From Botryllus schlosseri (taxonomy: Eukaryota): DNA of 64,000 nt. Shown here one piece after another: positions 39,181 to 64,000 of this stretch (position 1 is the first letter of the stretch; each line of letters opens with the position of its first letter). Under the pieces are notes generated by a model. The model was not told the DNA's origin. It ran no database searches and saw only the letters and a list, made by a program, of their open reading frames with translations. The stretch lies in assembly GCA_051294905.1 (NCBI GenBank), contig CM119373.1:124001-188000 (forward strand). Reading direction: 5' to 3'. The position numbers were made by a program, and so were the translations under genes.

Positions 39181-40102
39181 TAGGGCCATTTTTATATGAC
39201 CTTAAAAAATCCATAATATGACTTTATTTTTCGGAAAATATGACTTTATATGACTTTATGTGAAAATCGTGTATTTTTACATGCGAGCAACGTCACTCAG
39301 GGAACTAAATAGTAAAACATACGCAACATAACGCATCCCTTTTTTATTTGAAGCCACTGTTGTAGTACAGTTTCATGTAGTGCAGAATGTTAGAGTCATT
39401 AAAGTTACGATTTGGACCTAAAATGACTTTAGTAAGGAAATTCAGCGCTCCACAGGCGCTGATGTGGGTTGACACTTCTGCAGTTTTTCATAAAGCGAAG
39501 GTGAAATGTCTCTTTTTTGTAGCTCCATAATTTTTTTTTTCACATCGTTTTTGTATAATTGCTTCTTAATGTAATTTTTGAGCTCAAGCGGATCTTTTCC
39601 GAAATCAAGGGCATTTACATCAGCGTGGGCGTGTACGCAGGCTATAACTTTCCATTACAACATCACATCAGGTTGACGGTGTATACGTAAGCTATAATTT
39701 TCCATTTTCAGTATTAAGTTTGAAATATTGTTACAGTTGAGGAAAATTGGCTGAATAGTCAACTTTGTATCTTTGACTGAATTTTTGACGCTCTTTACAA
39801 TAACTTCACCTTCCTACGTCTCGGCATAATATTGAGCAGCATTCGACCAGCTACCCCAACGAGTAACTGCCTTAGTTTCTTAGTGCTTGATTGCTTCGCC
39901 GCTTAAATTGGTACTTTTATTTAAACTATGCTAAAATATGACTTTATAACTTTTTATGACCTAACCAGCAAAATATGACTTTATATGACTTTATAACTTT
40001 CTTAATATAGCCCATAGGGATGCGGTTTTTGCGTTAAAATTGATTTCACGACTTACTGATGCATAGAAAAAAATATGACTTTAATGACTTTAAATGGCCC
40101 TA
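39181..40102. mobile_element. non-autonomous hAT element present only in the left arm
   Basis: TIR tagggccattt...aaatggcccta; perfect TSD gttataag; empty site cttataac at 49337-49344. Confidence 0.93.
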
Positions 40103-40270
40103 GTTATAAGTTACTCATGTTTACAACACAACCTAAACGCAAAGTGCACGAATTTCCATATTGATCAAATACCACAAACTTTGCTGGCTTTCAGAGTTAG
40201 TAACTAAGCGCGTAACAGAATTTACCTAAAAAAGTGAGTACTCCAAAATTTTTGTAAAGTATAGCTTTTT

Positions 40271-40332
40271 GGCGTTGGATTTAAGTTCCAATGAACAAGT
40301 GTTCACATATAGGTTCGAATCCCACACCCACT
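40271..40332 (+). pseudogene. tRNA-Leu(TAA) 3' fragment (mirror copy ~49115-49176)
   Basis: anticodon arm ttgga-tttaagt-tccaa, variable hairpin tgaac-aagt-gttca, T loop ggttcgaatccc; 5' acceptor strand and D arm missing. Confidence 0.65.
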
Positions 40333-41664
40333 ACGTTTTACGAGAATTAATATTTTTAGATTCAAATTTAGCGTATTGAGTACTTTTTCTGCCTTTTTCA
40401 GCGCATTAGAGACGTTTACACTATGGATTTCGTGAGCTTTACTTGAGTTTTATAAATTAACGTAAAAGTAGTCATTTCCGAGTAAGTAAAACGTTCGTAT
40501 TGTAGGTTCATTTCTGCTTAATACTATAATTACCATGGAGTTGAAGCAGTCCAATATCAAAAACACCCGAAAGTATTTGTTGCATATAGCTAAAAACCTA
40601 ATTGAGTACTCTGAAGAAGTACAAGTTGCACAGTTTGTGGTATTTCTATGACATCGAAATTTAGCTGACCAGAACTTATACTTGAGTACTTCGAAATGTA
40701 CAAGTACTTTACCTTCACACGACGTTTCTGTAAAATGAATACTGATTTTATTAAAAAATAAAAAAGCACGAAAAATTACATTTTATCCCAAACCATCAGA
40801 ATACTAAAGTAGCTTATCACGTATATGGACCTAATACTAAAGTGTTTATGATTTCCGTTCGCTTCAACTTCATGACATTTTCAGTATTAAACAGAATTAT
40901 AGGCCTAGAATGCTAACTTTCTTCGTAAATTGCTACTTCTGCCTTAATTTAACGGATTTATCTGAGATCATTGCTTTACTTAATCTCTCCAAAATATGCA
41001 TTATACTAGTACGTCACCATCGAATCCCTCTGGCTATAACTACCCGATAGTATATTTGAGGCAAATACTCGAGTACTAATTTTAAAGTAGCTTAGGTATC
41101 TAAATGAACCGACGGTCAGTAAACCATTTCGAAGTGCAAGTACAGGAATATCGTAGTTCTTGAACCGTGCTCAATGCTCAATAGACCATTTTTGCTATTT
41201 TTCATCGCCATAAGTCATTCTGGACCGCGTAAACGCATTGTACGATATCGATGAAACTTATGCAAATCCCGGAACGCAACAAGAAAAATCGTATGAATTT
41301 GTAAACTACTTATTCATGACATAATAATAATTCTACTTGTACACATTTTCATATTTTATAACACTTTAAGTAGTACTTGAAAGTTTTGTCAAGTTAACAG
41401 GTTAAAAACTTATACTTGAGCACTACGAAATGTACAAGTACTTTACCTTTACACGACGTTTTTGTAAAATGAATACCAATTAAAAAATAAAAGATAAAAA
41501 AGAGCGAAAAATTACATTTTATCCTGGAACGCAACAAAAAAAATCGTATGAATTTGTAAACTACTTATTCGGTAAACTACTCTTTACTTCACAAAACAAA
41601 GTTACAAAAGTAAGCAGATTTATATGAAAACCCGTTAAATAGAAGTAAAAGTAATAACAATGCA

Positions 41665-42205
41665 TCATACCAAATTTGATCACAATTTCATGATGCAATA
41701 CCTTTAAAACTAACGCAGTTCTCTACACACTTTTGCGCAAATCTGTGTTTCGCTAGCGTAGCACGTACCTATACATAGTAAGCTTCAATAACGGAATTAC
41801 CATGCTAATAATCAAATCCCCACCCTGAAACTTGGTACGCGGTTGTAGGACATTATGAAAATACAACATACCAAATTTCATCAGACATTTCATGATGTAA
41901 CACCTTTAAAACCAACGCAGTTCTATACCGACTTTTGGTTAAATCTGTTATCCATAACGCAGCACGTACCTATACATAGTCAACTTTAAAACGGAATTAT
42001 CATGTTAATAATCGGCTCCCCACCTTGAAACTCGGTACGCAGTTGTCAGACATTATGACAATGTACCATGTCAAATTTTGTTACGCATTTCATGATTGAA
42101 CAACTTGAAAACTAACGCAGTTCTATACCGACATTTGCGTGAAACTGTTTTGCGGGAGCTTAGCACATACCTATGCGTAGTCAACTTTAATGACGAAATT
42201 ACAGA
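41665..42205 (+). repeat. diverged tandem repeat, ~2.7 x 201 bp (mirror copy ~47495-48040)
   Basis: recurring atttcatgat...aaaac(t/c)aacgcagttct and tgaaact(t/c)ggtacgc at ~200-bp spacing. Confidence 0.8.
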
Positions 42206-42407
42206 TGTAATTAGGTTTCAACACTTTTACAACGATTCTTCTTGCTTCCTATAACATCCCACTCGAAGCTCTCGTTATTAGGCTATGATCTCAGCCTGAG
42301 CTATGTCTTAAAGCCTACGGGACTTTGCAAATTGTTTCGATTTATTCTACCCGTTTTAATTTAAGGAAGCCCATTTTACTCAATGTATCGATGACTACAG
42401 TATAGAG

Positions 42408-43571
42408 CAGGGGTGGGCAAACTACGGCCCGCGGGCCGCATGCGGCCCGCAACACCGTTCTGTGCGGCCCGCGAGAGCCTAAAGAAACTTATTAAAAATA
42501 TTGATCAAATGCGTACTAAATATCGAATTAATGCAGGGACTTGATTAAACTTTTTCTTAGTATATTTCACCATGATAATTCTAAGGCAGTGGTTCTCAAA
42601 CAGGTGGGCGCGTGAAATTATCTGAAGGGGGAAACGAAGCTCATGAGCTCAACTTAAAAAAAAATTTGCTCTGCGCAATTTCCGCCCAATTCCTAGTTAT
42701 TGCTCTGTATTTGGTCTGAATTTCATATCTAAAAGTCTCTCATCTACAGTCGTAACCTTCCATGCTATCAAACTATCCGTTAGGTTTGCTACCATCCTGG
42801 TTTCATTTTGTGATCTGATGATAAGAGAGCGCGAAATCTTTCACCATCATAAGATGGTCGTGTCTTAAAAAGTTTGAGAACCACTGTTCTAAGGTAAATA
42901 GGCCTACTTCTTATATTTTTTATGTTTAATTTCTGGCACGACCAGCATCTCAAGGCCCTAGCAGTATAAAAGGTTTCAACTGCTAAACATCCCATAAATC
43001 CTAAACGAGATTGACATAATTTGGATCACGAGTGCGATTTCAGATTGGCCACTCTTTTTTTTATTTTAGTGGCGTGCTTGTAAAAAAACGATTCGCGCAT
43101 GTCATATTGTCATATGTAGATTCGTGCTCTGTATGGTATTTATATTCTATCTACAATTAGTAGAATCATGTTTGAAGCTAACATGGTTATGATGCTGTCA
43201 GCATTGTGTGTCCTGGAACTGAATCCAAATGGGAATTAGTAAATCTATGTACAGGTCGCTGCTCACAGATTTAAATTTCAATCCTATTCTAAGAATCGGG
43301 ATAACCGACTTTCATCTCTATAGTTTTGACAAATTGGTCATTGAGGTCTCGACCAGCCTATGAAATATCGCCACTGTTTGTGACGCGTGTACGATATCAT
43401 CAAAGCATCAAGGTTTGTTTTAGATAAGCATATATGTTATCTCCATGTCCTCACTATAATCAAATGCCAATATTGCATTTTGGTTTATAATCCCAATTCT
43501 ATATAGTGCGGCCCGCGAATGGATTCAGATGTTGAATGCGGCCCGCGAGCTGAAAAGTTTGCCCACCCCTG
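42408..43571. mobile_element. composite non-autonomous hAT element present only in the left arm
   Basis: TIR caggggtgggcaaact...agtttgcccacccctg; perfect TSD gtatagag; empty site near 47293. Confidence 0.93.
42587..42886. mobile_element. 300-bp hAT MITE nested in 42408-43571
   Basis: TIR cagtggttctcaaac...gtttgagaaccactg; perfect TSD ttctaagg. Confidence 0.92.
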
Positions 43572-43746
43572 GTATAGAGTATACTCTACAAAATTTCTGA
43601 TTAATTCTCCCTATGTTAATTTACCATAAAAAGACAATTTGACTCCTAAAGTCCGAAATACTTGTTCGCTTGAGCTAAGCCGCAGCGCCTGGAGTGGAAT
43701 TTTATAGTTCTTGTAAAAAGTTGTTTGTACACAATATATGTTTAAG

Positions 43747-44035
43747 GTAAGTCCTACGCATTCTTGATTTCGTCCGAGTTTGTATTTTAGTAATATATAC
43801 TAATTTACGATACCGCGTTTGTAACTTGTGCAAGTAGGCCTACAGGAATATCATAGTTCTTGAACCGTGCTCAATGCTCAATAGACCATTTTTGCTATTT
43901 TTCATCGCCATAAGTCATTCTGAACCGCGTAAACGCATCGTACGATATAGATAAAAGTTATGCAAATCCTAGGATCCTCATTTTCAAAGTAGCTTAGATC
44001 TCGAAATAAGCTCTGACTCGCTATTTTCCTCAAAG
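43747..44035 (+). other. putative 5'-UTR intron of the Mcl-1-like gene
   Basis: donor aag|GTAAGT at 43747; branch-like ctctgac at 44011; acceptor ttttcctcaaAG ending one base before the ATG. Confidence 0.6.
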
Positions 44036-44036
44036 C

Positions 44037-44507
44037 ATGGAATTACCACGAGTATCACCTTCGATCGCTGAAGAAAAGGATGAGATTATATCCAAAGCAT
44101 ATTCCTTGACCAGGAATTTTATCATGTACGAACTCGATGGCTCATGCGTTAAGGTAAATACGAAAGCAGAGAGAACCTTACGTCGAGTTGGGGATGAAAT
44201 GTTCGAGCGACATCGAACTGTCCTAAACGCAGTCTCCAAACGTCTCCGCTATAGCGATGTCGATGTCAATGAAAAATATAAAGAATATTTACCCGATGAG
44301 CGAATGTTCCTGATGATAGCTGATGAAATTTGCAAAGATACCAAAGAAAATTGGGGTAGGATTGTCTCCCTTTTTGTGCTCGGTAGCATTCTTGCTCGCA
44401 AGAACGAGGATAAACATCATGGGGAGCATATAGAAGCTATCATACAGACAGTCGGAAATTACATTGCTAGCAGAAGACTAAAGTGGATAGTGCGAAATGG
44501 AGGATGG
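44037..44507 (+). CDS. MCL1: Bcl-2 family apoptosis regulator, Mcl-1-like; coding exon 1 (157 codons)
   Basis: BH3 TLRRVGDEM, BH1 NWGRIVSLF, BH2 start WIVRNGGW; GT donor directly after the Trp codon, the conserved phase-0 BH2 intron position; symbol reflects motif similarity, orthology untested. Confidence 0.9.
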
Positions 44508-44691
44508 GTGGGTGATTTACATGCTTTGCTTAGGATTTATAAATTATCATTTAGCATGAGATATATAGTGTATCCGCTCCCCAGAGCCCATATCATCTCT
44601 CGATGATGAAACTCAGCTTTACCTTCCAATTCGGTTCCAGATACGATAACTTTCATCCGTTTGATCATTAAGGCTTCTATTTTTGTTGTAG

Positions 44692-44805
44692 GATGGCTTT
44701 GTAGAATTCTTTGATAATACCGCTTTCGACTACAATAAAGTTTGGAAGGGACTCGTGTTTGTCGGGATCGGACTGACATCTATTGCAATGGCATTATCAA
44801 GATAA
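44692..44805 (+). CDS. MCL1: Mcl-1-like gene, coding exon 2 (BH2 end plus C-terminal TM anchor); spliced protein 194 aa
   Basis: acceptor tttttgttgtAG; translates DGFVEFFDNTAFDYNKVWKGLVFVGIGLTSIAMALSR*; W|DGFVEFF matches vertebrate Mcl-1 BH2; AATAAA at 44844. Confidence 0.88.
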   Translation, partial: DGFVEFFDNTAFDYNKVWKGLVFVGIGLTSIAMALSR

Positions 44806-46398
44806 TGGATGTTCGCGTGTTTTGTCTCGTGTAATATTTTAAGAATAAAATTCTTCATCGTTTAATCGCATCCATTTTACTGTAGGACCTATACAGTTTC
44901 TTCTGAGAATACTCGAAGGATTGCCCCATATGGAAACCTTCTTTATACTTTTAATTTTTCTAATTTCTACAGCTACGTAAGGAAATTGTTAGGATTACCC
45001 AGAATACATTGCAGGTCAAATTTGATTCGATTACGAGCATTATAGCGACAGAGATTTACGATAGTGTAAAATGACCTACCTTACGACATCAAATTTCGTC
45101 TTCTCTCCAAGTGGAAATATCATGTTCTATAATATTGTCCATACCGAACAAATATAAATTTGCCTGTGCTGTTGCTTTGCAAGAATACTTCGCTCACATA
45201 GTAACCAATTTCTGGTGGATCCCGAATCGATATAGACAGAAATGCGGAAAGTTACATTGACATGTCTTAACTTCTGCCATAGAAGTTGCGTTTCTGACTA
45301 CTTAAAAGTTGCTAGAGCTCACGCTGTTTTATCGTCGTATTGATGTTCGTTCTGAAAAGTAGCATGCTCTATGCTTCATGTTCACATTATTCAGTTAGGT
45401 TTTGCGCAAAGAAAAATAAAATTCACGCAAAAGTCGCTATTGCTCCGCGATGATTTTGATGTTGTTCCATACCGATTTGGGAGGTAGTACACTTAATTTC
45501 GTAAAGGACGCAGATAACTACTTCTACTAAATTCTTACACTTCTAAGCTTCTACACTGAATCTTGTAAAGTATATAGAAAAGGAAAACTAACGAATAATT
45601 CATGAAGTTCCGATAGGCTATATTTGAGGTAATGATTCCCGTGCGAATGAAAAGTAAGTATAGAAGGTTAGTATATCAACGATATCGCTGCCCGTCATTG
45701 CGTCGATTCGCTGCTTGAAATCCTCCAGATCGATTGATGTTTCGAGGTTTCGTGGTTTCGCTTTGCTGTCATACGTACGAGCAGAATGTCTGGATTAGGA
45801 ACAACTACACCGGGACCATTGAAGCTTTCGGTACAGCGCAATATGAATAGCACTACGTTGATCAATTCAAATTCAACAATGGCTCCCAATGGAATATCAC
45901 AATTAGGGATCTAAAAGTAACTAATATGGGTATGTTTGTAGATTATTTATCCTTCTACTCAGAGGCTTTTCAGGTGAAACTAGCTACTTTTAGGACTATA
46001 TATTTTAAAGTAGTTTGAGCTTACTTTTGTATCACCTTGACGAGTGGCGTTATAAGACATGAAAATGATTTATCACCTAATATCAGAAGTTAACACACGT
46101 CAATGTAGTTCGGAATTCACGAGAAATTGCATGATTACTAAGAGAAGTATATTCTTGTATACACAATAGCGGAGAAAATATTTAACATGTGGTAAGCAGG
46201 CCGATATGAAGATGTAAACTATAAAATGTTGTATGCCGCGCTGATGAGATTAATTATAATATACTTCTCATGTTACAGTGATTTTTCAATAACGAAACTC
46301 TTTTACGGCATAAGCTAATTAATTTCATAGTAAACATAAAATACCTGCTGTCGAGGATTTGCACTTATTTGCGGCGTGTTCAATTAACTCATGTGGCT

Positions 46399-46836
46399 CT
46401 AAAATGTAGTAAGCAGGGTGATGGGTATTCGTTGAGTTGAATAACCATAAAAAATATTCCCGCGCCCTAGGTTGCGAGCAAGAATGCTACCGAGCACAAA
46501 AAGGGAGACAATCCTACCCCAATTTTCTTTGGTATCTTTGCAAATTTCATCAGCTATCATCAGGAACATTCGCTCATCGGGTAAATATTCTTTATATTTT
46601 TCATTGACATCGACATCGCTATAGCGGAGACGTTTGGAGACTGCGTTTAGGACAGTTCGATGTCGCTCGAACATTTCATCCCCAACTCGACGTAAGGTTC
46701 TCTCTGCTTTCGTATTTACCTTAACGCATGAGCCATCGAGTTCGTACATGATAAAATTCCTGGTCAAGGAATATGCTTTGGATATAATCTCATCCTTTTC
46801 TTCAGCGATCGAAGGTGATACTCGTGGTAATTGCAT
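46399..46836 (-). pseudogene. inverted, 3'-truncated duplicate of the Mcl-1-like gene (open 145-aa ORF; BH3+BH1, no BH2 or TM)
   Basis: identical to aa 1-121 except E2Q, then an unrelated tail NLGRGNIFYGYSTQRIPITLLTTF*; upstream intron and 5' region also duplicated. Confidence 0.85.
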
Positions 46837-49800
46837 GCTTTGAGGAAAATAGCGAGTCAGAGCTTATTTCGAGATCTAAGCTACTTTGAAAATGAGGATC
46901 CTAGGATTTGCATAACTTTTATCTATATCGTACGATGCGTTTACGCGGTTCAGAATGACTTATGGCGATGAAAATAGCAAAAATGGTCTATTGAGCATTG
47001 AGCACGGTTCAAGAACTATGATATTCCTGTAGGCCTACTTGCACAAGTTACAAACGCGGTATCGTAAATTAGTATATATTACTAAAATACAAACTCGGAC
47101 GAAATCAAGAATGCGTAGGACTTACCTTAAACATATATTGTGTACAAACAACTTTTTACAAGAACTATAAAATTCCACTCCAGGCGCTGCGGCTTAGCTC
47201 AAGCGAACAAGTATTTCGGACTTTAGGAGTCAAATTGTCTTTCTTATGGTAAATTAACATAGGGAGAATTAATCAGAAATTTTGTAGAGTATACTCTATA
47301 CTGTAGTCATCGATACATTGAGGGAAATGGGCTTCCTTAAATTAAAACGGGTAGAATAAATCGAAACAATTTGCAAAGTCCCGTAGGCTTTAAGACATAG
47401 CTCAGGCTGAGATCATAGCCTAATAACGAGAGCTTCGAGTGGGATGTTATAGGAAGCAAGAAGAATCGTTGTAAAAGTGTTGAAACCTAATTACATTTGT
47501 AATTTCGTCATTAAAGTTGACTACGCATAGGTATGTGCTAAGCTCCCGCAAAACAGTTTCACGCAAATGTCGGTATAGAACTGCGTTAGTTTTCAAGTTG
47601 TTCAATCATGAAATGCGTAACAAAATTTGACATGGTACATTGTCATAATGTCTGACAACTGCGTACCGAGTTTCAAGGTGGGGAGCCGATTATTAACATG
47701 ATAATTCCGTTTTAAAGTTGACTATGTATAGGTACGTGCTGCGTTATGGATAACAGATTTAACCAAAAGTCGGTATAGAACTGCGTTGGTTTTAAAGGTG
47801 TTACATCATGAAATGTCTGATGAAATTTGGTATGTTGTATTTTCATAATGTCCTACAACCGCGTACCAAGTTTCAGGGTGGGGATTTGATTATTAGCATG
47901 GTAATTCCGTTATTGAAGCTTACTATGTATAGGTACGTGCTACGCTAGCGAAACACAGATTTGCGCAAAAGTGTGTAGAGAACTGCGTTAGTTTTAAAGG
48001 TATTGCATCATGAAATTGTGATCAAATTTGGTATGATGCATTGTTATTACTTTTACTTCTATTTAACGGGTTTTCATATAAATCTGCTTACTTTTGTAAC
48101 TTTGTTTTGTGAAGTAAAGAGTAGTTTACCGAATAAGTAGTTTACAAATTCATACGATTTTTCTTGTTGCGTTCCGGGGATTTGCATAAGTTTCATCGAT
48201 ATCGTACAATGCGTTTACGCGGTCCAGAATGACTTATGGCGATGAAAAATAGCAAAAATGGTCTATTGAGCATTGAGCACGGTTCAAGAACTATGATATT
48301 CCTGTACTTGCACTTCGAAATGGTTTACTGACCGTCGGTTCATTTAGATACCTAAGCTACTTTAAAATTAGTACTCGAGTATTTGCCTCAATTATACTAT
48401 CGGGTAGTTATAGCCAGAGGGATTCGATGGTGACGTACTAGTATAATGCACATTTTGGAGAGATTAAGTAAAGCAATGATCTCAGATAAATCCGTTAAAT
48501 TAAGGCAGAAGTAGCAATTTACGAAGAAAGTTAGCATTCTAGGCCTATAATTCTGTTTAATACTGAAAATGTCATGAAGTTGAAGCGAACGGAAATCATA
48601 AACACTTTAGTATTAGGTCCATATACGTGATAAGCTACTTTAGTATTCTGATGGTTTGGGATAAAATGTAATTTTTCGTGCTTTTTTATTTTTTAATAAA
48701 ATCAGTATTCATTTTACAGAAACGTCGTGTGAAGGTAAAGTACTTGTACATTTCGAAGTACACAAGTATAAGTTCTGGTCAGCTAAATTTCGATGTCATA
48801 GAAATACCACAAACTGTGCAACTTGTACTTCTTCAGAGTACTCAATTAGGTTTTTAGCTATATGCAACAAATACTTTCGGGTGTTTTTGATATTGGACTG
48901 CTTCAACTCCATGGTAATTATAGTATTAAGCAGAAATGAACCTACAATACGAACGTTTTACTTACTCGGAAATGACTACTTTTACGTTAATTTATAAAAC
49001 TCAAGTAAAGCTCACGAAATCCATAGTGTAAACGTCTCTAATGCGCTGAAAAAGGCAGAAAAAGTACTCAATACGCTAAATTTGAATCTAAAAATATTAA
49101 TTCTCGTAAAACGTAGTGGGTGTGGGATTCGAACCTATATGTGAACACTTGTTCATTGGAACTTAAATCCAACGCCAAAAAGCTATACTTTACAAAAATT
49201 TTGGAGTACTCACTTTTTTAGGTAAATTCTGTTACGCGCTTAGTTACTAACTCTGAAAGCCAGCAAAGTTTGTGGTATTTGATCAATATGGAAATTCGTG
49301 CACTTTGCGTTTAGGTTGTGTTGTAAATATGAGTAACTTATAACACTTGTTCATTGAAACTCAAGTCCAACGCCTTGACCGCTCGCTCAAGCCAGTTCCG
49401 TTGCTACGATATCTGAGAAATCTATTAAATTAGGGTAGAAATAACTATTTCCAAGTAAGTTTCACGAAGTCTCGATACGCTATATTTAATCTAAAAATAT
49501 TAATCCCCATAAAACGTACTGGGTGGGGGGTTCGAAGCCTAGAATAATAAGCGGATCGTGATTGAAAATAGAAGGAGGATCACTGGATTAACGTTTATGG
49601 AATACTCCGCAATGTAAAATTAGTATATACTGCACAAAATCCAGAGTGTAAGAGTCTTTACTGCATCGGAATAGTGTAGTTTTCCATCTACTTTACAAAA
49701 TTTATATGATTTTTCTTGCTACGTTCCGGGATAAAATGTAATTTTTCGCACTTTTTAATTTTTAATAAAATTAGTATCCATTATACAAAAACGACGTGTA

Positions 49801-52568
49801 AAGGTAAAGTACGAATACAAGTACAAGTAGAGATTTCAAAGTAAGTAAGTGGTTATGTTCGTAGACTAACCCCACTTCTACGTAACGATTTTTCAGTAAG
49901 TAGTCATGTTTCTAGGCTACTTTTACTTCTATTTAACGAGTTTTCATACAAATCTGCTTTCTTTAATGACATTCAAGTAGGCTACTTACTTTAGATTATT
50001 AAAAGTATAGTGATTGAAAATAGATCACTGGATTATAGTTTACAGAAAACTCCACAATTCTATGTGACGTCCTTGCATGCCAACAACCTTCGAACTATTC
50101 GCCACCTCATAAACACTTGAGTAGGCCTACATTTGATGCGTGTGGGGAAAACCTAGTTAAATTTTCATGTGCATTTAGTTTCCAGCTCTGAAAGCAAGCT
50201 TGGTCTATGATCAATAGCAACTTTTGCGTAAACTCCGTTCTATTTCACTTCATACCTATACAATGTAGATAGTCTATTCGAATAATTCGATGTATAATTG
50301 AACTTTCCACTGCATGATCATTAGGGCTTCTATTTTTTGTTGCAGGGCAACTTTGTTGTAGTCGAAAGCGGTATTATCTAGCAACAAGGTTTAAATGACT
50401 CGCCTCCGGCGTTTATTGACCGTATTACCCGTATTCTCGTCATGCAAAAATTATGCATGTATTAGTATGAAGCTCAGATGCAGCAAAGTGTGTGAGACTG
50501 GCTGTAAAATGGCGCGAAGCAGCGACTCTAATTTCCCGGCTTATAGCAAACAACGACGCTGAAATTCTACTTCAGACGCAGCAAAGTGGGTGAGACTGCC
50601 TGTAAAAATTGCGCGAAGGTACATTTCTCGGCTTATAACAAATAACGACGCTGAAATTCTACTTCAGATGCAGAAAAGTTAATGCGTTTGGCTATATAAA
50701 TTGCGCGAAGGTGCATTTTCCGGCTTATAGCGAATAACGACGCTGAAATTCTACTTCAGATACAGCAAATGCGGCAAAGTCTGCGCGAATAGCTGCATAA
50801 ATTGCGAAAAGATGCGACTCTAATTTTTAGGCTTTATTGCAAATACCGATCGACTTTTGCGTGAATTCTGTTATGCGTTTTACTACGTTAATGAATAAAA
50901 GTTAATATTCTAGGTCTATATTTCTGTTTAATACTGAAAATGTCATGAAGTTGAATCGTTACTAGGTATTAATATTATGTTGATCGCGCGAAATGTGCGT
51001 AGAAATTTAATACATCATCAAATAACCACGCCTATAGTTCAACGTGGATGAGTGTTATCTGAGAGCTCATACTATCCGCGAAAATACACAGTCCTAAATA
51101 CACATAATAGAATATCTTGCGAATATAGTCTTGCGTAGACATCATAGTTTTCGAAATTTGTTCATAAATACAAACGGCAATAGTCTGGCGGCGAGCGATA
51201 AAACATAGTGATCAAAATTATCGCTAAGCAATACCGATTTTGCGTAAATGCCGTTATGCGTCTGACTACGTAACTAGGGATTATGTAGTTGGTTACGAAA
51301 TTGAGTGTGCTATCTTCCCAATCGGTATGGAACAACATCAAAATCATCACAAAGTAATATCGACTTTTGCGTGATTTCTGTTACGCGTTTGTAAATGAAC
51401 ATTAATTAATTATTGATCCGCGAAAATACAAAGTTCTAAATTCACATAAGAATAAGCGAGAATTCATATTCCCAAAAACAGATCAGTACGCGTTTTCGAA
51501 GTAGTCGCATTAGTCCTAAATACACATATTAGAATATTAGTCCTAAATACACATACTATATTATCTAAGGAAAGTATCATCTAACGCAGGGGTGGGCAAA
51601 CTTTTGAGCTCGCGGGCCGCATTCAACATCTGAATCCATTCGCGGGCCGCACTATATAAAATTGGAATTTGATTATATAGTGAGGACATGGAGATAATAA
51701 TATGCTTATTTGAAACAAACCAAACATTGCTATGATGATATCGTACACGCGCCAGAAACAATGGCGAGATTTCATAGGCTGGTCGACCTCAATAACCAAT
51801 TTGTCAAAACTATAGAGTTGAAAGTCTGTTGTCCCGATTCTTAGAACAGGATTGAAATTTAAATCTGTGAGCAGCGATCTGTTCATATATTTAATTCCGC
51901 TTTAGGTTCAGTTCCAGGACACACAATGCTGACAGCATCATAACCATGTTAGCTTCAAACACGCTTCTACTATATGTGTAGATTTCGCGCACCCTTATCG
52001 TCATATCACAAAACGCAACCAGGATGCTATAGCAAACCTAACGGATAGTTTGGTGGCATGGGAGGTTACGACTATTGATGAAAGATTTTTAAATATAACA
52101 TTCATACTAAATACAGAGCAATAATCATGAATTGGAAGTAAATCGCGCGAAGCGCGAAAAAAATTTTCAGTTGAGCTCAGCTTTGCGATTCCCTTCAGAT
52201 GCTTTCATGACCTCAAGGGGCACGCGTCCCCCAGGTTGAGACCCACTGCCTTAGAATTATCATGGTGGAATATACTAAGAAAAAGTTTGATCAAGTCCCT
52301 GCATTAATTCGATTTTTAGTACGCATTTTATCAATATTTTTATAATTTTCTTTAGACTCTCGCGAGCCGCACAGAACGGTGTTGCGGGCCGCATGCGGCC
52401 CGCGGGCCGTAGTTTGCCCACCCCTGATCTAACGTATAATGAATGTTATTTATTTCTCGGAAGCATGGACCGGCCATAGTCCGACGTTAATTATATTATG
52501 AGAGTGTTTACATTCTAAATAGCCTGAGGGGCGAGGCGTATAATTCAGGTACCCTCACTACTTGTACT
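46472..52568 (-). repeat. right arm of large inverted duplication 1
   Basis: reverse complement of 36797-44401; ~5.25 kb shared after removing arm-specific indels. Confidence 0.95.
51587..52426. mobile_element. composite hAT element (family of 42408-43571) present only in the right arm
   Basis: TIR caggggtgggcaaact...agtttgcccacccctg; perfect TSD atctaacg; empty site cgttagat near 36931. Confidence 0.92.
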
Positions 52569-52800
52569 GTCCAAGACGTTGTCACAGTAGCGAATACGGG
52601 CAGAATACCTATGTACATTGTGCGAGTGTCAAAAGCTCACGACACTAGGCTTCTTCTCCAAAGATCATGACAGTTAAGTCTAAATGGGGTTCCTGATCCT
52701 CAACTACCAATGCAATCTGTAAGAAAACGTCCACGGTGTTCTTACGGAAACAGAAACAATAATCTCAATACGTTTTGGTCATTGTCGTCACCCACTATTG

Positions 52801-53780
52801 CAGGGGTCACCAACCCGGTGCCCGCGGGCCCCAGGTAGCCCGCGAGGACCAGATGAGTAGCCCGCGAGTCCGTTCTAAAAATAGCATTCACCAACATTCG
52901 TCAGATTATTACCAGATAGCTTTTAAATATACAGATAGGTTGATTCCGCAATTCTTGTGTAAAACACACTAAGATGTAACTTACAAGTGGCAATACATAT
53001 AGATATAAACACTTAAAAAAGATATTCCACTACAATAGTAATATATAGATATATGCGATGGAATCACCAGAAATTTAAGATATGGCGCACTGCCTATACA
53101 AGCGACATGACGGAATGCCATCGTCTTCTTGGAATGGCGGGAGGGGGGTCCGTTACGATAGCTCGACAATGTCAAGGTAGTAAACAATGTTAGTATTTAA
53201 CAGATACTAACAGATTTTCAATACTGTATTTGTATGCCCATTACGTATTGCATCTTTTGAAATAGCTTGTTTCTGTTAAACTCAACGCAGTTTAAACCAT
53301 GTTTCTAACGTTCTGTAATCGTTGCGGCTGTACGGTATAATGAAATCTTGTCATTTCTCGACGCTGAACAGTCGGAGATTCAAATTGTAACACTGCGAAA
53401 TGACCTCCACCCGAAAGCCTATCAGACTGCAGCAAACGTTCGATGCCTTGTTGATACGGCAAAGTACAGTGGTGTGTGCGTACTGCGCAGCTGCTCACAA
53501 GGTTGCAAGAGTGTATGGCTCAACTTATCGTTGTGAATCAACCTTTTCGGACATGAAATTTATCAAAAAAACAAACACAGAACAAACCTGAATAATGCAT
53601 ATCTGGAACTCTCACTCAGAGTTGCAGTGTCAAGTTACATACCAGAGTACAGCGCACTAGTTGATATCATACAATGCCAGGCCTCCCACTGATTACTATA
53701 GTAACAGATAACATGATGCCCAGTCTAAAGTGGAACATGATATATTTTGAAATTTGAGTTGTATAATTTATACAAACATG
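52801..53780 (+). mobile_element. hAT element, left part only, with transposase C-terminal relic (~53350-53692)
   Basis: TIR caggggtcaccaac; manual translation KVARVYGSTYRCESTFSDMKFIK / NKHRTNLNNAYLELSLRVAVSSYIPEYSALVDIIQCQASH*; no right TIR seen in the window. Confidence 0.82.
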
Positions 53781-53829
53781 AGTAGTTATATAGATCGGTC
53801 ATGATGCGCCATTGTGTCTTATGGGTGCA

Positions 53830-54180
53830 CCCGACCGGTGTCGCGAAACTCGTCCTGAACCGGTGACACTTTCAGACCCCCCTTCCACCCGACCGGTGCC
53901 TGGGTTGGTATAGGCATCTCTCGACCGGTAACCCTTTTCGGTATAGGGATCTCTCGACCGGTGCCTCGAAACTCGTCTTGAACCGGTGACCCTTTTCGGT
54001 ATAGGGATCACTCAACCGGTGCCTCGAAACTCGTGTTGAACCGGTAACCCTTTTCGGCATAGGGATCGCTATACCGGTGCCTGGGTATAGGCATCTCTCG
54101 ACCGGTAACACTTTTCGGTATACGGATCGCTCAACCGGTGCCGTGGTGGTAATTCGTACTTTCGAGTATAGGCATCTCTC
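53830..54180 (+). repeat. subterminal tandem array, ~58-bp unit with ACCGGT cores
   Basis: g(t/c)atagggat at 53941, 53999 and 54057; repeated gaaactcgt, accggt, ccttttcgg. Confidence 0.85.
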
Positions 54181-54384
54181 GCATGGTGTGGAATATGTAT
54201 CAGGTATGGTAAATAGTCATGTGACTGGTACTTAGTTAATGTGTATATCCCAAATTATTATATATGACCGATTCCAGGTAATCCCAACGTTTACGGCGAG
54301 TGCGACTTTAAAATATCGTTATTCTTATGACCGCGGTGATTCGTACTTTCAGGTATATGCTGCGACGGTGCCTCGTACTTTCAG

Positions 54385-55030
54385 CAAAAAGGTGTGAAAT
54401 AGTTTGCTAAATCTAGGAATCAGTCGCATAGTAATGTTTGGGCAATTAGTTTACCAGAGAGCTGGCGTAGACGGCGATTCCAATACCAACAATAACCGCG
54501 TTCACAAACTAACACTTCAAATAGGTGTGAAATAGTTTGCAAAACCCCGCGATCGCTGACAAGATAATGTCTCGGACATAACCATCTTTCGCGGCTTCGT
54601 GTTACAGGCATATCGATCGCTCACGCGGTGAAATTTTCGTAAGCAGTTTGTCACAGAACTTGATTTCACTCGTAAGATTTAATAAGTGACGAATAACAGA
54701 CCGCCAGTGTCGGTAACTTGAATAGCGACAAATTGCCACTTATTTCTACTATAACCCTAATCCTTTGTGAAGTGTACGCTTATTCAAAAAGGTGCGAAAT
54801 AATTCTAAAATCCTACGATCGCGCACAAGATAACGCCTATAAGACATAACCATCTCTCGTGACTTGTGGTTACATACATCCCAATCGCTACAATGTAATA
54901 TGTTGGTAGTTTGGTACAGAACTGGATTTCACGAGTCTGATATAATAAGAATATTACCTATTAAGTAATAAGCACCGAATAACAGAACCGGCGCAGACGG
55001 TGACTTGAATATCCAAGATTTGATACTTTC
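54385..55030 (+). repeat. diverged tandem repeats, ~265-bp unit plus a partial copy
   Basis: aggtg(t/c)gaaata, cgatcgc..acaagataa, gacataaccatct and acagaact.gatttcac recur. Confidence 0.65.
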
Positions 55031-56961
55031 CGCGATCGCTATATGTTTCACGTTGACTTTGGTTGCGTGATGCGAATCATGAGAATATTCAATCAATGTG
55101 TCAATTTGTCAACTTGAAATGAAACTCACTACACAAACCAAGTTGATTCGTATTTGAATGTATTGATCCGGTACAACTCTAACCCTTTGAGAAATCCATT
55201 TACCACGATCAGTTGATTCGAACGTAACTTGAATATTGCTGACTCCAACTTCAGTCGCATCGAATTATTCACACATTCCACGCTGTTGTTTCACACCTAT
55301 AGAATCAATACCAACTAACTAAACAAGAATCAAGAATCACAAGTATGCACATACAATAATTGTATTTATTACTGAGAAATCAAACGCTTAACAAAAACAC
55401 GCAACTTATCATTTGCCAACTCTAGCATTACCAAAAAATCAGGTAGGCCTATTGTTGATTGAAAATCCTTGAGTCCTTATTATCAAAAATGTTATAGTGC
55501 GGCGTCGGAATCCATTCGCGGGATGTACTAAAGGTAAATTCAGATAATCCAAAATGAAATATCTCGACTTTGACATAATCTGAATTGAAATAGATTGACA
55601 AACATAACTACCAACTTTCACCCAGTCACATTTCGAAATTATACGCATATTGATTTGAAACAAGTAATGAAATATCACAACTATATTCGCGATCGGACTT
55701 TCCGTTTGGCAAAGATAGTTTCAGAAATACTATCACTATGACATCTCAACATTTTAACATCTTGCCATACACAAAAGAGTAAAATACAAAAACCTTGTCA
55801 AGTCAATCCGTTTGTAACTTACCCAACCAACTCAACAGTATCCTTACGAAAAGTAGACAAGACTACGCGAGTAATCACTACAATCCAAAATCCATAGCAA
55901 GTTCGGTTGTATCGATAGTCCGCCAACTCGTATTTTTTATTCAACTGTAAAAGTCGTTACTATTTTGTAAGACAAAAGTAATTACTACCCGCTGCAGGTG
56001 ACTTGAGATTAACATAATATGTTTGAGTATACGAGATTTGAAAGTCTGATCAACGTATAGTTGCGACTTCATTTCTTACAATCGAACGCTGGTGTTATAT
56101 CGAAAGTTACCATTCTGTAAACATAAGGATTGATACATTGATGTACCATATGTAATAGTTGATCATGACTTGATTATTAAATTATTCGTGTTAATTAGAC
56201 CCGGCGTTGTGGTAAAGGTTATTATGACAACAACAATCTTTTCAGTACCGTTGTTATTAACATATCGAGTTGTAAAACTATGCGTGTCTGAAATGTTCAT
56301 GATTGAAAAAATTATTCCACCTTGGTACATATCACTCTGCGTATCGCGGATATCAGAAAATATTTTACAAATGTAATTGTTTCCAGTAACCAAACTAAAG
56401 ATGAAACAACAATTTCGTTTGCTGATTAACAACCGGTGAAATACTTTATTGTCGGAATCTGCGACATCGAAATGAAACATACGCACATTACGCAGTACGA
56501 AAATATCACTTTGGGCTCCGGGGCGGTGTCATTTAATCTGTGTTAAACTCTGTTCACACTCTCTGTCGAAAATGCGTGAAATGTAAAAACATTACGAAGT
56601 CACACTCTAAGACTTTGATCATCAAAAAAGTAAATAGAGGTATCTTTACTGGATCGATTCTATTCAACTGGTCTTGGTTAATACAAAACCCATAACAATA
56701 ATATCGAAGTATGTGCTACACTGAAATCTACAAAAATGTGTTTGTATTGCTGTTCATAGTAGCGATATCGATTTGAACCTCCAGAATAATTGTCATCATG
56801 TAACCAAACTAAGGAAAGTTGTTGTCAATTTGTATGATGTTCACTGAATGCGTACTATAGAACTAATTGTGTAACGCACACGATCAGAGAAATTGGAAAT
56901 TTTCCCATTGTCATTCGTCACAATACTCGGTCACTAAAATACGTTACTTGGATGTGATTGA

Positions 56962-57198
56962 ATCGCTGGTAGTTAACTCGATAAATCAAACCCCTAAGAA
57001 ATTTCACTCACTCATTAGATATTAAACAGTGTCGCCTAATCGGTGTGGATCGCTTTTATAAATACAAATCATACCTGGTCATCGCTGATAATTAACTCGG
57101 TAAATCAAAACCCTAAGAAATTTCACTCACTCGCTGGATATTAAACAGTGTCACCTAATCGGTGTAGATCGTTTTTCTAAATGTAAATCATATAGGTC
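56962..57198 (+). repeat. 2 x 119-bp tandem duplication
   Basis: atcgctg...ccctaagaaatttcactcactc...gatattaaacagtgtc..cctaatcggtgt at 56962 and 57081. Confidence 0.88.
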
Positions 57199-57520
57199 CA
57201 ACAGAAAAAATGTTCACCCACTCGGAAATGAAACCAATGTGTTGGTCTCCATTCGATATTTTGTTTGGGTCAAATACTTTGCAATGAACACATTTGAGAG
57301 GTTGAGCTTTACATCATCAAGCTGTCGTTTGTAAATCAAGATTTCGGTAAACTTGTAAATGTATCGTTTAACTAACCGACATTTAGTGATTGGTGAACAT
57401 ACCAAACGATACACATCCACCTCGAAATACTCCGTTGATCGTAATTTCCATTATCGTAATAATCGAAGTACATTTGTGTCGAATTCGTAACAACCGACTT
57501 TTCTATGGCATGATAAATTT

Positions 57521-60267
57521 TTGACAAGTTATACTTAGAAGGTTGGTACATATCGCAAAAAATAATATACCATTCATATTGATACAGTTACTCCGTTGAT
57601 CGATATTTTCAAACGAACCGATTTTCAAACGAGTAAAATTTATTACTTGAGTTGTTCCGCTTACTATATTTAAATGTTAACTCATCCATCTTTCAAAACC
57701 ACAACGAACAACGATAAAAAGTATGCAATCAAACACAACATGTTTTACTTTTGTAGGACACTAATTATTATCTCATTTCATACTAAGTGTATAAGAAAGA
57801 TATTCATGACACACGAAAATATTCGATATTCCCATGCTACGAACCTGTACAATGATTGGTGGGACTTTCAAACTGTTTCGATGTCACAAGAACTTTATTG
57901 TCTGAATGGTTGTTCATGTATCTTAATAATCAAATAGTTCAACACAGAACTAGTACGAACAGAAACATCAGAGTTGTTTACACAAAAGTTTGTATGCGTG
58001 CAGTATGCGAATACCATGTGTAAGTCGAGCACAGTTGCGGTATCCATCCAAGTTTAGTTAACAGAAATTCATTACAACGGAGCCGTGTAAACTTTCGTGA
58101 AAGAAAAGCATACCCACTTCCCGAGGGTTCTGTCAATGTCATAACAATAAACCAGATACTCCAACAACAGAGTACATATGTTTTCTAGTCACGGTCCCTA
58201 CATCTTTCACAGAGATCAATCTACTTTGCTACCGAAAAGTGCCGAGTCATCGCATGATTGTCCTCACAACAAAACAACCAGTAGATGGAGCTGTATTAAA
58301 ATTTTCCTAACCCTTTGCACACCAGTGACAAATTGTTTAGTGTATCGAGTGGTTGTTCAGCGTCAAGTCTCCATGTTGAAGCATACATTAAAACAGTGCA
58401 ATCACAATCCAATTAAAACCACCAATCTATTTTCATTTCCTCACAAACTGCCACATACAGAAAAATATTTTTTTTTCCCAAAACATACTTGTAACCAATC
58501 GCTTTCATTAAACACACAACACCATGATAGTATTTACTTTCTACATTATAGACATTCCGATGTAGTCAAGAAATATTTTTAATAATCAAAATCATCGACT
58601 TCTGTTTACGGCGTTAGTATGTGCATGTCATACATGTGGGGTCCGTATTAAAATGCAAACGACACGGCTGAATGTAAGGAGATAGAAGTCTATCGCATAG
58701 ATTTACATGTGGTCTTCGCTACGGTTTCAAAAAACGAATCATCTCTTTTGCATTGATCGAGACCGAGCAAGTTAGTTAATGGCCATGATTGTGTTTGTCA
58801 TATGCGAATAATAGGGTTACTGTCAAATCTACATACAACAACCTTCTGGCACTCATAATAGCAATTTCATTCTCTCCCTTCGTAATTGTATACTCACGAC
58901 AAGTATATTGTACAACTCGACAGCTACGTTTAACAAGACCAACGACACTGAGCCCACGACGTTTACCTATGTAAAATTACCACTTTCACTTGACAGTCCA
59001 TCGTTTACCTGACTAAACATATCATTTTCCTTTGGAGATCTGACGTTTACCCAGAGTAAGAAACCATTTTCACTTGGAAATATATTTTTTCCCCGGGTAA
59101 CAAACCTTTTTCACTTGGAAATATATTTTTTCCCTGAGCAACAAACAATTTTCACTTGGAAATATATTTTTTCCCCGGGTAACAAACCTTTTTCGCTTGG
59201 AAATATATTTTTTCCCTGGGTTACAAACCTTTTCACTTGGAAATATATTTTTTCTCTGAGCAACAAACCATTTTCACTCGGTAGTCCGTCGTTTACTTGA
59301 GTAAAAATATCATTTTCACTTGGAAAAATACTTTTACCTAGAGTAACTAATCATTTTCTTTTAGAAATATATTTTCTCCCTGGCTAACAAACCCTTTTCG
59401 TTTTGAAAACTATCATTTACCTGAGTACCAATAAAGTTTTCACTTGGAAATCTATCTTTTACCTGGGTAACAATACCATTTTCGTTTTAAAAACGGACAA
59501 CAACACCGGACAATTTGATATTTTTGTATATTGTTACAACAGGCAGCGACAAAATATACACCAACAACGACTCCAATACATTTGTGTAATCGTATATTCA
59601 CTTGCTCTGGTGCATCCCATCGAAATCCTCAGTTACCCGCATGCAATGTGCTGTTGTACATCGATGTGTATGTTTTGGAAATTGGACAATAGGTTTCGAC
59701 ATGTCTGCGATGTCCCGGTTCGTGCTTTGGATTTTCCAGAGTCAAAATGTCTGAATAAAACACCTCCTCGACTTCGGTAAATGTTTGGCACGCAGATAAC
59801 GGCGGTCGGAAATCGAGGAATTTATGTTTCCATCGGGCTAACAACTCCAGGTTACTTGTGATTTATCTCACACGTGTTTACTATGTTGTGTCGCTCTTTA
59901 TTGATCAATACATACCACACCATTCAGTTTTAAATCGGAAACCCCGAGAAAGAATTAACCGGATCCGGATATCAACTCTGAATCGATAAACCATATTCAA
60001 GTAAACATGCCACAACCTGTGTCTCCATGAAAATAACAAGATATCGCACAAATCAAGTATACTTCGCGATTATTTGCCCACACAAGTAATCACGTAAACG
60101 AGGTGTATGACATTACATACATCATGGATAACATCGTGTCCAGCATTACAAACATCATGGGTGACAAATTCGTCTTCTCAAGTCTCGTCATGCACCGACT
60201 CTGTACATTCAGTGGGGGTATAGATGACTTGGGGATAGACAAACAGCCATCTTTGACCGTAACATGG
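57521..60267 (+). repeat. left arm (in-window part) of large inverted repeat 2
   Basis: mirror ORF coordinates all sum to 121521; the last 10 nt of the window pair with 57521-57530. Confidence 0.96.
58975..59485 (+). repeat. ~41-bp minisatellite (mirror copy ~62035-62545)
   Basis: ttttcacttggaaatatatttttt-ccc(cggg/tgag)-aacaaac repeated about 10-12 times, degenerate at the edges. Confidence 0.9.
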
Positions 60268-60911
60268 CCTTAGCATGAACCGAGATGTATTCAGCTTGGG
60301 GGGGGGGGAATTAGTCGCACACTATTTCACCGAGATTACACCCCTTTCACGGTTCACACCTTGATTTATCACCTTCTCAAGGTAGTTCGGGTTCTCAGAT
60401 AGACTTGGTTCATGATTCGGACTTCGGGGTATAGTAAAATCAGGATGTGTAGTTTAATTACTCACTCAGTCACTCACTCAATGTCCTGTATATTGGTGGT
60501 GGTCCTATCCTGCAAACTGTTTGCTGAGAACGTAGCTCATCCGTTGGTTCAATGTATATACGGAGTGCGAAAACTGTCGCTGTTTTGACTATGTGTCACA
60601 ATCAATACTAAATATGAGAATTCGTTACACGGGTGCAACGTCGCAGTCAGACATCCTTAACAGTGATTCTGTGTATGGAAATCTCAAATTCGATTGCGGT
60701 TTTTGTAATCCGGGTTACTGTGTTTCTGTGGTGTGAAGACTAAATTCGTGTTGATCCCCTCGCAAGAGCGTGATGTCTATTTTACACCTTGAGCAATTAT
60801 AAAGCGCATCTTCGAAACTTTTGGTCTAGTTCATCCGCTTGCATTTCGAAACGGACCATCACCACAAGGCAATTGAAAAAACGTTATCGTTACCTGACCA
60901 TATACAAGAGC

Positions 60912-61190
60912 ATGGATGGACTACGCATAACTGTCCATAGGTTCCTCTGGCCCCACACCGTGGTTTTACGACACAGACAAGATGCGGCAGTGGAGATATT
61001 GAAAATGAAAAACGATACCTTGGTTACATTTGATTTGGATTTTACACCTGATGAACCATACACTCGACTGATACATTGGGACGACAACTCTATCGTCAAA
61101 GTCGAGGGAAAAGAAATGTACAGATTTGTTGGTGTCGTGGCTATTCAACGAAAATCGGGATACATGATAGTACATGGTTCACATATATGA
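60912..61190 (+). CDS. hypothetical 92-aa protein in the palindrome spacer (open from 60789)
   Basis: MDGLRITVHRFLWPHTVVLRHRQDAAVEILKMKNDTLVTFDLDF...; intronless and protein-like in composition; no recognisable family. Confidence 0.3.
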   Translation: MDGLRITVHRFLWPHTVVLRHRQDAAVEILKMKNDTLVTFDLDFTPDEPYTRLIHWDDNSIVKVEGKEMYRFVGVVAIQRKSGYMIVHGSHI

Positions 61191-61253
61191 CTATGAATAT
61201 GCATAATGCTCTGTTCACTGTATCGATATCACCAATGGTATTTGAACGAATAA

Positions 61254-64000
61254 CCATGTTACGGTCAAAGATGTCTGTTTGTCTATCCCCAAGTCATCTA
61301 TACCCCCACTGAATGTACAGAGTCGGTGCATGACGAGACTTGAGAAGACGAATTTGTCACCCATGATGTTTGTAATGCTAGACACGATGTTATCCATGAT
61401 GTATGTAATGTCATACACCTCGTTTACGTGATTACTTGTGTGGGCAAATAATCGCGAAGTATACTTGATTTGTGCGATGTCTTGTTATTTTCATGGAGAC
61501 ACAGGTTGTGGCATGTTTACTTGAATATGGTTTATCGATTCAGAGTTGATATCCGGATCCGGTTAATTCTTTCTCGGGGTTTCCGATTTCAAACTGAATG
61601 GTGTGGTATGTATTGATCAATAAAGAGCGACACAACATAGTAAACACGTGTGAGATAAATCACAAGTAACCTGGAGTTGTTAGCCCGATGGAAACATAAA
61701 TTCCTCGATTTCCGACCGCCGTTATCTGCGTGCCAAACATTTACCGAAGTCGAGGAGGTGTTTTATTCAGACATTTTGACTCTGGAAAATCCAAAGCACG
61801 AACCGGGACATCGCAGACATGTCGAAACCTATTGTCCAATTTCCAAAACATACACATCGATGTACAACAGCACATTGCATGCGGTTAACTGAGGATTTCG
61901 ATGGGATGCACCAGAACAAGTGAATATGCGATTACACAAATGTATTGGAGTCGTTGTTGGTGTATATTTTGTCGCTGCCTGTTGTAACAATATACAAAAA
62001 TATCAAATTGTCCGGTGTTGTTGTCCGTTTTTAAAACGAAAATGGTATTGTTACCCAGGTAAAAGATAGATTTCCAAGTGAAAACTTTATTGGTACTCAG
62101 GTAAATGATAGTTTTCCAAACGAAAAGGGTTTGTTAGCCAGGGAGAAAATATATTTCTAAAAGAAAATGATTAGTTACTCTAGGTAAAAGTATTTTTCCA
62201 AGTGAAAATGATATTTTTACTCAAGTAAACGACGGACTACCGAGTGAAAATGGTTTGTTGCTCAGAGAAAAAATATATTTCCAAGTGAAAAGGTTTGTAA
62301 CCCAGGGAAAAAATATATTTCCAAGCGAAAAAGGTTTGTTACCCGGGGAAAAAATATATTTCCAAGTGAAAATTGTTTGTTGCTCAGGGAAAAAATATAT
62401 TTCCAAGTGAAAAAGGTTTGTTACCCGGGGAAAAAATATATTTCCAAGTGAAAATGGTTTCTTACTCTGGGTAAACGTCAGATCTCCAAAGGAAAATGAT
62501 ATGTTTAGTCAGGTAAACGATGGACTGTCAAGTGAAAGTGGTAATTTTACATAGGTAAACGTCGTGGGCTCAGTGTCGTTGGTCTTGTTAAACGTAGCTG
62601 TCGAGTTGTACAATATACTTGTCGTGAGTATACAATTACGAAGGGAGAGAATGAAATTGCTATTATGAGTGCCAGAAGGTTGTTGTATGTAGATTTGACA
62701 GTAACCCTATTATTCGCATATGACAAACACAATCATGGCCATTAACTAACTTGCTCGGTCTCGATCAATGCAAAAGAGATGATTCGTTTTTTGAAACCGT
62801 AGCGAAGACCACATGTAAATCTATGCGATAGACTTCTATCTCCTTACATTCAGCCGTGTCGTTTGCATTTTAATACGGACCCCACATGTATGACATGCAC
62901 ATACTAACGCCGTAAACAGAAGTCGATGATTTTGATTATTAAAAATATTTCTTGACTACATCGGAATGTCTATAATGTAGAAAGTAAATACTATCATGGT
63001 GTTGTGTGTTTAATGAAAGCGATTGGTTACAAGTATGTTTTGGGAAAAAAAAATATTTTTCTGTATGTGGCAGTTTGTGAGGAAATGAAAATAGATTGGT
63101 GGTTTTAATTGGATTGTGATTGCACTGTTTTAATGTATGCTTCAACATGGAGACTTGACGCTGAACAACCACTCGATACACTAAACAATTTGTCACTGGT
63201 GTGCAAAGGGTTAGGAAAATTTTAATACAGCTCCATCTACTGGTTGTTTTGTTGTGAGGACAATCATGCGATGACTCGGCACTTTTCGGTAGCAAAGTAG
63301 ATTGATCTCTGTGAAAGATGTAGGGACCGTGACTAGAAAACATATGTACTCTGTTGTTGGAGTATCTGGTTTATTGTTATGACATTGACAGAACCCTCGG
63401 GAAGTGGGTATGCTTTTCTTTCACGAAAGTTTACACGGCTCCGTTGTAATGAATTTCTGTTAACTAAACTTGGATGGATACCGCAACTGTGCTCGACTTA
63501 CACATGGTATTCGCATACTGCACGCATACAAACTTTTGTGTAAACAACTCTGATGTTTCTGTTCGTACTAGTTCTGTGTTGAACTATTTGATTATTAAGA
63601 TACATGAACAACCATTCAGACAATAAAGTTCTTGTGACATCGAAACAGTTTGAAAGTCCCACCAATCATTGTACAGGTTCGTAGCATGGGAATATCGAAT
63701 ATTTTCGTGTGTCATGAATATCTTTCTTATACACTTAGTATGAAATGAGATAATAATTAGTGTCCTACAAAAGTAAAACATGTTGTGTTTGATTGCATAC
63801 TTTTTATCGTTGTTCGTTGTGGTTTTGAAAGATGGATGAGTTAACATTTAAATATAGTAAGCGGAACAACTCAAGTAATAAATTTTACTCGTTTGAAAAT
63901 CGGTTCGTTTGAAAATATCGATCAACGGAGTAACTGTATCAATATGAATGGTATATTATTTTTTGCGATATGTACCAACCTTCTAAGTATAACTTGTCAA
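61254..64000 (-). repeat. right arm of large inverted repeat 2, continuing past the window end
   Basis: reverse complement of 57521-60267 with a few substitutions and no net indel. Confidence 0.96.

Follow-up and report, generated by a model that had tools for sequence, protein, structure and literature searches.

Mavericks, also known as Polintons, measure 12.7–24.6 kb, and those of vertebrates carry (AGT)2//(ACT)2 ends, target-site duplications (TSDs) of 6 bp, terminal inverted repeats (TIRs) of 46–1447 bp, and eight conserved genes, as described in the available text of PMC8097293. In the accessible part of PMC3014272, the Mavericks of Anolis are few in copy and include no non-autonomous ones; the excerpt of bioRxiv 2024.01.15.575659 gives 744-bp TIRs for Polinton remnants in C. 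elegans. Tlr1 elements, sometimes called non-autonomous Polintons, encode a helicase and are classed with the Polinton-like viruses (PMC5499653, available sections). The present study concerns a palindromic element that starts at position 53781 of a 64,000-nucleotide stretch of Botryllus schlosseri DNA (GenBank assembly GCA_051294905.1, contig CM119373.1, positions 124,001 to 188,000 of the forward strand; this whole stretch is termed “the window”). Its visible part is 53781–64000, and its predicted right end, at 67740, lies outside the window. We regard the element as probably a non-autonomous, palindromic dependent of Mavericks/Polintons that represents an established lineage, as opposed to a single snap-back product.

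Like the autonomous Mavericks in the available portions of PMC8097293 and PMC3014272, the element features an (AGT)2 left end, inverted repeats, and a predicted size that falls within 12.7–24.6 kb. To these likenesses a neighboring palindromic element (36803–52562) adds (ACT)2 and a 6-bp TSD that matches at five of six positions. The inverted repeat seen (2747 bp) belongs to the inner part of the element, with the termini outside of the visible paired region; arms of at least 2.7 kb (6.5 kb predicted) compare with the 46–1447 bp of reported Maverick TIRs (PMC8097293, available text). The element also differs from autonomous Mavericks in being, by prediction, 93% inverted repeat, in having no recognized core genes, and in belonging to an abundant family. 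Non-autonomous Polintons that are gene-poor and thought to rely on Polinton proteins were reportedly described by Kapitonov and Jurka in 2006, and the present element is likewise gene-poor and probably relies on such proteins. We know of no near-total palindrome among those families. In the literature searched, to which Repbase, Dfam, and supplements did not belong, no description of a palindromic non-autonomous Maverick was found.

Other palindromic systems are also pertinent. Foldback transposons such as Drosophila FB have long inverted arms that contain tandem arrays, and their loop varies. In its long arms with tandem arrays of 58, 119, and 41 bp, the element fits this definition; it differs from foldback transposons in its Maverick-type end motif and in arms that are apparently homogenized within each copy. 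Gene-free adenovirus genomes, reportedly obtained by Steinwaerder et al. in 1999 through inverted-repeat recombination, are said to have one end duplicated around a unique center and to replicate by protein-primed strand displacement; those genomes are engineered and episomal, whereas the element occurs naturally, in integrated form, and in abundance. PMC6431247 also mentions foldback transposons. Snap-back genomes are described for RNA viruses in the accessible part of PMC13506859 as virtually loopless and devoid of coding capacity. Relative to snap-back and copy-back defective viral genomes (PMC13506859, same part), the element shares the palindrome, the predicted presence of the same end twice, and the helper dependence proposed here; it departs from the strict definition in being integrated, in its 986-bp loop and conserved frame, and in belonging to a diverged family.

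Results

Inverted arms of 2747 nt were located at 57521–60267 and 61254–64000. They are 99.7% complementary, with eight mismatches (an arm-to-arm divergence of 0.29%, 8/2747), and are separated by 986 nt. The symmetry axis is 60760/60761; an earlier note on this DNA had described a mirror symmetry about this point up to the window edge, and it was recovered when the arms were aligned. If the symmetry runs to the AGTAGT at 53781, the element is predicted to be 13,960 bp long and to end at 67740, with arms of 6487 bp that would account for 93% of its length. The mirror of 53781–57520 and an (ACT)2 motif at 67735–67740 would then follow past the window edge. The left arm would then occupy 53781–60267, its mirrored portion being visible from 57521; this arm is covered by many diverged records in three sequencing runs. 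The loop, which is unique sequence, extends over 60268–61253 (986 bp), with contig boundaries at or near its edges. The right arm, found in the inverted-repeat search, starts at 61254 and is truncated by the window edge at 64000.

Repeat searches yielded several tandem arrays within the arms. Near the left end is a GC-rich subterminal array with periods of 58 and 33 bp (53834–54142), which is a candidate cluster of protein-binding sites; its 58-bp part had been pointed out before and was confirmed at 53924–54142, with 3.7 copies. Eleven of the 15 ACCGGT palindromes in the window are situated in the subterminal array, and unit-sized deletions in it were seen in other copies of the family. The array did not fold better than shuffled sequences (z = −0.25). 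Further inward are a 119-bp tandem duplication (56962–57192) and a 41-bp array of 10.6 copies (59046–59483), whose mirror copy is located in the right arm at 62038–62465.

At the left end, AGTAGTTATATAG begins at 53781, and aacatg occupies 53775–53780. Positions 53781–53786 (+) constitute the 5′ (AGT)2 motif of Mavericks, as given in the available text of PMC8097293. The chance of an AGTAGT within 100 bp of a chosen point is about 2.5%, and the motif is thus modest evidence alone. Judged by sequence only, 53775–53780 (+) is the predicted left copy of a 6-bp TSD, with the right copy predicted at 67741–67746, past the window. Position 53781 was absent from the 18 loose contig ends listed, of about 3030, from the aligned runs. 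Exact scans with the terminal 20–22-mers gave no matches in viral, metagenome, or prokaryote genome contigs.

The DNA to the left of this end (52801–53780, +) is the left part of a hAT-like element that is apparently split by the insertion. It opens with CAGGGGT, as do two neighboring elements with exact 8-bp TSDs, and the 8-mer upstream of all three is NNNTANNN. No right end matching the left end at 52801 was found downstream within the window. Because of the CAGGGGT end, the NNNTANNN site, and the missing right end, we infer that the palindromic element was inserted into the hAT-like one. The earlier statement that a hAT element is cut off at 53780 was upheld as regards a left end with no right end downstream; the identity of the transposase, in contrast, found no match in Pfam or PDB. 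The segment at about 53391–53693 is presumably the C-terminus of a transposase, to judge from a motif resemblance; neither database gave a transposase match for it. The palindromic element itself was said to be devoid of the small transposon ends that are common elsewhere in the window, and this is correct: 27 hAT-type end motifs are found in 1–53780 and none in 53781–64000, and self-BLAST coverage was 0.0 in all five 2-kb bins from 54001 (two of the 27 earlier bins also had 0.0).

Parts of 53700–61300 were contained in 20 of the 24 public runs listed. Four runs were aligned to 52600–61300 (8.7 kb), three of them contig runs and one a raw Hi-C run; run X1, which may be close to the source, was not counted as independent, and the seawater and urban metagenome rows, whose shares were at most 0.24, did not enter the analysis. 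In the three contig runs, 129130, 11628, and 1892 records were aligned, and summed depth was greater over the arm than over the loop, neither figure being a copy number. Records at least 99% alike to this copy made up 24, 24, and 21%, respectively. Over the same 8.7 kb, the family features 480 variable places and many internal deletions. The element is therefore a repeated, diverged family in the runs of other studies, known there from records in which no distinct flanks were seen. In runs X15 and X17, which derive from different studies, a contig boundary occurs at 61283, with more than 100 nt of loop before the 30 nt of right arm; one X17 contig stops at 60267, the arm-loop border. These boundaries are best read as the branch in an assembly graph at which the arm has two inner continuations, with k = 31 suggested by their positions.

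The loop harbors an intact frame of 92 codons (60912–61190, +; ATG to TGA) that had been overlooked and is likely a gene, judging from its sequence conservation. Three of four candidate protein clusters matched it (E = 7e-51 to 4e-39). The six relatives are 73–90% identical to it; five have 91 amino acids and one has 98. They are borne on contigs of 965, 1064, 1064, 1075, 1192, and 2005 bp, five of which are near the size of the loop. Seven of the 40 listed differences (among 480) fall inside the frame; taken singly, three are silent and four give the residue of P0001, and P0001 therefore belongs to this element family. Changes in the frame lean conservative: they were more so than their single-base neighbors in comparison with P0001 (P = 0.004–0.009) and P0003 (P = 0.01–0.04), and the frame is probably under selection. 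In a separate observation, each of the three contig runs contains other copies from which about 340 bp of loop sequence (60275–60616), upstream of the frame, are deleted; the frame is kept.

The 92-residue protein could not be assigned to a family. Pfam and PHROG gave no reliable one, and the best PDB match had E = 0.73. When 1.84 billion representatives were searched in full with HMMER, the sole matches were P0002 and an artifact, P0007, which is a translated tandem repeat and was rejected. The predicted fold is not reliable (mean pLDDT of 40.8), and the look-alikes of the protein in an atlas, the C-terminal beta domains of alpha-amylases (recognition 1654, with scores reaching 0.90), provide no more than weak leads. 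The search for loop-protein loci in viral contigs gave none from 51 candidates. Two candidates of 202 from metagenomes were rejected, the match being 41% over 41 amino acids; one of the two, L001, appears to resemble a fungal ubiquitin-activating-enzyme region.

These data bear on a different account, i.e. that the palindrome is a one-off local inverted duplication, made by fold-back repair in a repeat-rich Maverick remnant, whose symmetry stops before the terminus. The symmetry is indeed visible over 2747 bp only, and the very low divergence of the arms would suit a recent event. However, the architecture recurs, contigs from other studies contain loop-arm junctions, and loop-sized contigs bear relatives of the loop frame with identities down to 73%. 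A one-off duplication is accordingly improbable.

A comparison of the arms with the family was also informative. Seven of the 40 listed differences (480 in all) are in the visible arm, and both arms carry the letter of this copy at all seven; at six of these, each of the three contig runs shows another letter at 98% or more of its depth. All eight arm-to-arm differences are confined to the inner 864 bp of the arm (59404–60267 in the arm alignment), with none in the outer 1883 bp. This inward clustering, which had not been noticed before, has a P of about 1e-4 given the direction and of 0.0015 for clustering anywhere. The shared, family-rare alleles and the inward gradient of differences suggest that the arms are homogenized, and the gradient is consistent with one arm being copied onto the other, starting at the end and proceeding inwards.

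No gene of an autonomous Maverick was recognized in the element. At E ≤ 0.1, Pfam detected no family in any of 12 six-frame read-throughs of 53781–61302; a gene for a protein-primed DNA polymerase B was not found by these read-throughs, which have low sensitivity to frameshifted remnants, and nothing better than E = 0.035 was obtained in the element for integrase, ATPase, protease, or capsid genes. The longest stop-free frame comprises 143 amino acids. The previous remark that polymerase, integrase, and capsid genes are not visible is consequently in agreement with the six-frame scan, and the element shows no recognizable part of the gene set (polymerase B, integrase, ATPase, protease, capsid) that characterizes autonomous Mavericks/Polintons. 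No homolog was found for the frame at 56166–56528 or for one of three minus-strand frames in 55371–56030; the remaining frames were scanned with Pfam and PHROG only. At 55365–56600 (−), several protein-like frame pieces terminate in a stop overlapping the AATAAA at 55365; this is possibly a decayed gene, and no homolog was found for it. Reading with an alternative genetic code opened no long frames in the element and was rejected.

Also overlooked previously was another palindromic element, complete and unrelated in sequence, at 36803–52562, 1.2 kb from the element under study. It is 15.8 kb long and has AGTAGT and ACTACT ends, the latter at 52557–52562, and its 6-bp flanking duplication matches at five of six positions. 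Between its arms, 22 differences were counted over 5315 positions (99.6% alike), and they are spread along the length except for one gap of 1378 bp. The loop is about 2.07 kb (44402–46471). Bcl-2-family frames are found in both arms, at 44037–44606 (+; Pfam E = 3.5e-21) and 46399–46836 (−); they start in the arms and continue into the loop, so their ends differ (189 and 145 amino acids). Small inverted-repeat elements have been inserted in single arms at 39182–40102, 42408–43571, and 51587–52426, and two of the three are flanked by exact 8-bp NNNTANNN duplications. These insertions postdate the last evening-out of the arms. Together with the exact 8-bp TSDs of two of them, they argue against the neighbor being an artifact. 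The neighbor demonstrates that this genome contains a palindromic architecture bounded by full Maverick-type ends; it does not show that the studied copy ends alike.

The neighbor is relevant to two further accounts. In the first, the studied palindrome would be an assembly or library artifact, either a fold-back chimera or a palindromic read. The outer 1883 bp of the arms have no differences, no raw-read support was obtained, and an artifact could still account for the gradient alone. Against this stand the eight arm differences and the 986-bp loop, the branching contigs in independent runs, and the transposons that were inserted separately into the arms of the neighbor and have 8-bp TSDs; an artifact is thus very improbable. 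In the second, the element is a cut-and-paste transposon of the foldback type, mobilized by a non-Maverick transposase, and AGTAGT is a coincidence or a product of convergence. This explanation has in its favor the long arms with internal tandem arrays, which are typical of foldback elements, and the failure to find a Maverick gene remnant in the element. We nonetheless consider it unlikely, as the neighbor combines (AGT)2//(ACT)2 ends with a near-perfect 6-bp duplication, and cut-and-paste transposition alone leaves unexplained why the arms share family-rare alleles.

Elsewhere in the window, a 2.4-kb tandem duplication with 98% identity was found at 14361–19157, with an older relative (78%) at 20316–21643. 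A GIY-YIG-like frame (24741–25247) is located inside a 468-bp inverted repeat (24578–25045/27135–27602), and a LINE-like element with a zinc-knuckle frame (27575–30444) adjoins this region; the whole covers 24578–30444. To judge from the LINE-like and Bcl-2-family frames, the host is an animal.

Discussion

The earlier note proposed a Polinton-derived giant palindrome. Of this proposal, the Maverick-type left end, the palindromic arms, and the lack of recognized core genes stand; descent from an autonomous Polinton is a hypothesis. The accompanying picture of a snap-back defective genome needs correction, as a conserved frame lies in the 986-bp loop and the family is both diverged and abundant. 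The abundance and divergence of the family, together with the conserved frame, therefore argue for an established lineage and not for a fresh, one-off copy-back product. By analogy, the element would work like a Maverick dependent; its membership in the class awaits a shown partner.

Several points weigh against the interpretation of the element as a Maverick-dependent lineage. The right end of the studied copy and its TSD lie outside the visible window, and both are predicted. Helper dependence is argued from analogy, and scanning long, noisy frames with Pfam has little sensitivity (the presumed hAT remnant was missed as well). The two palindromic elements in the window share just the 6-bp end motif; tblastx gave no match between them, and the one blastn match (62 bp) is located inside an inserted hAT-type element. 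As for the family, contigs span the arm-loop junctions by 30 and 20 nt, below the 31-nt bridging threshold, and the raw Hi-C run, X21, gave no aligned reads (about 12% of the run was sampled). The same gradient of differences could arise if assembly or polishing evened out arms at a distance from unique DNA, and the neighbor also has a difference-free gap, the one of 1378 bp (P = 0.03). Regarding conservation of the loop frame, the conservative-change test was not significant in comparison with P0002 (P = 0.06–0.15), and protein databases contain open frames only.

A mechanism can be proposed for such a Maverick-dependent palindrome. The protein-primed polymerase of a helper would start at the AGTAGT ends, where the ACCGGT array may serve as binding sites. 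The displaced strand would fold back across the whole 6.5-kb arms, leaving the loop, which retains the small frame, as the only unpaired part. Copying or repair from the end inwards would then turn one arm into a copy of the other, such that the two arms of a copy remain similar and different copies diverge. Finally, the integrase of the helper would insert the product with a 6-bp duplication, in this instance into the hAT-like element and recently. The use of a helper, fold-back replication, and integrase-made TSDs are drawn from the known biology of the Maverick family.

A more far-reaching proposal, which we put forward as speculative and rather doubtful, is that such elements are true satellites of animal Maverick/Polinton viruses. 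They would have palindromic genomes of helper size that replicate extrachromosomally as hairpins or panhandles, with one arm rebuilt in each round; they may be packaged in the capsid of the helper; and they would carry cargo of their own (the orphan 92-residue loop protein here, and Bcl-2-like genes in the neighbor), with at least two unrelated lineages side by side in the window.

The replication of animal Mavericks and their formation of particles have so far been largely inferred. If the Maverick-dependent reading is true, an abundant palindromic dependent would be a natural record of a replication intermediate, and the homogenization of arms and the inward gradient could be measured over many copies, as a test of protein-primed copying with fold-back. 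The dependent would further represent an additional class of Maverick parasites, poor in genes, which would go unnoticed or be broken up in repeat annotation and which, as the Bcl-2-like frames of the neighbor suggest, can carry genes of host type.

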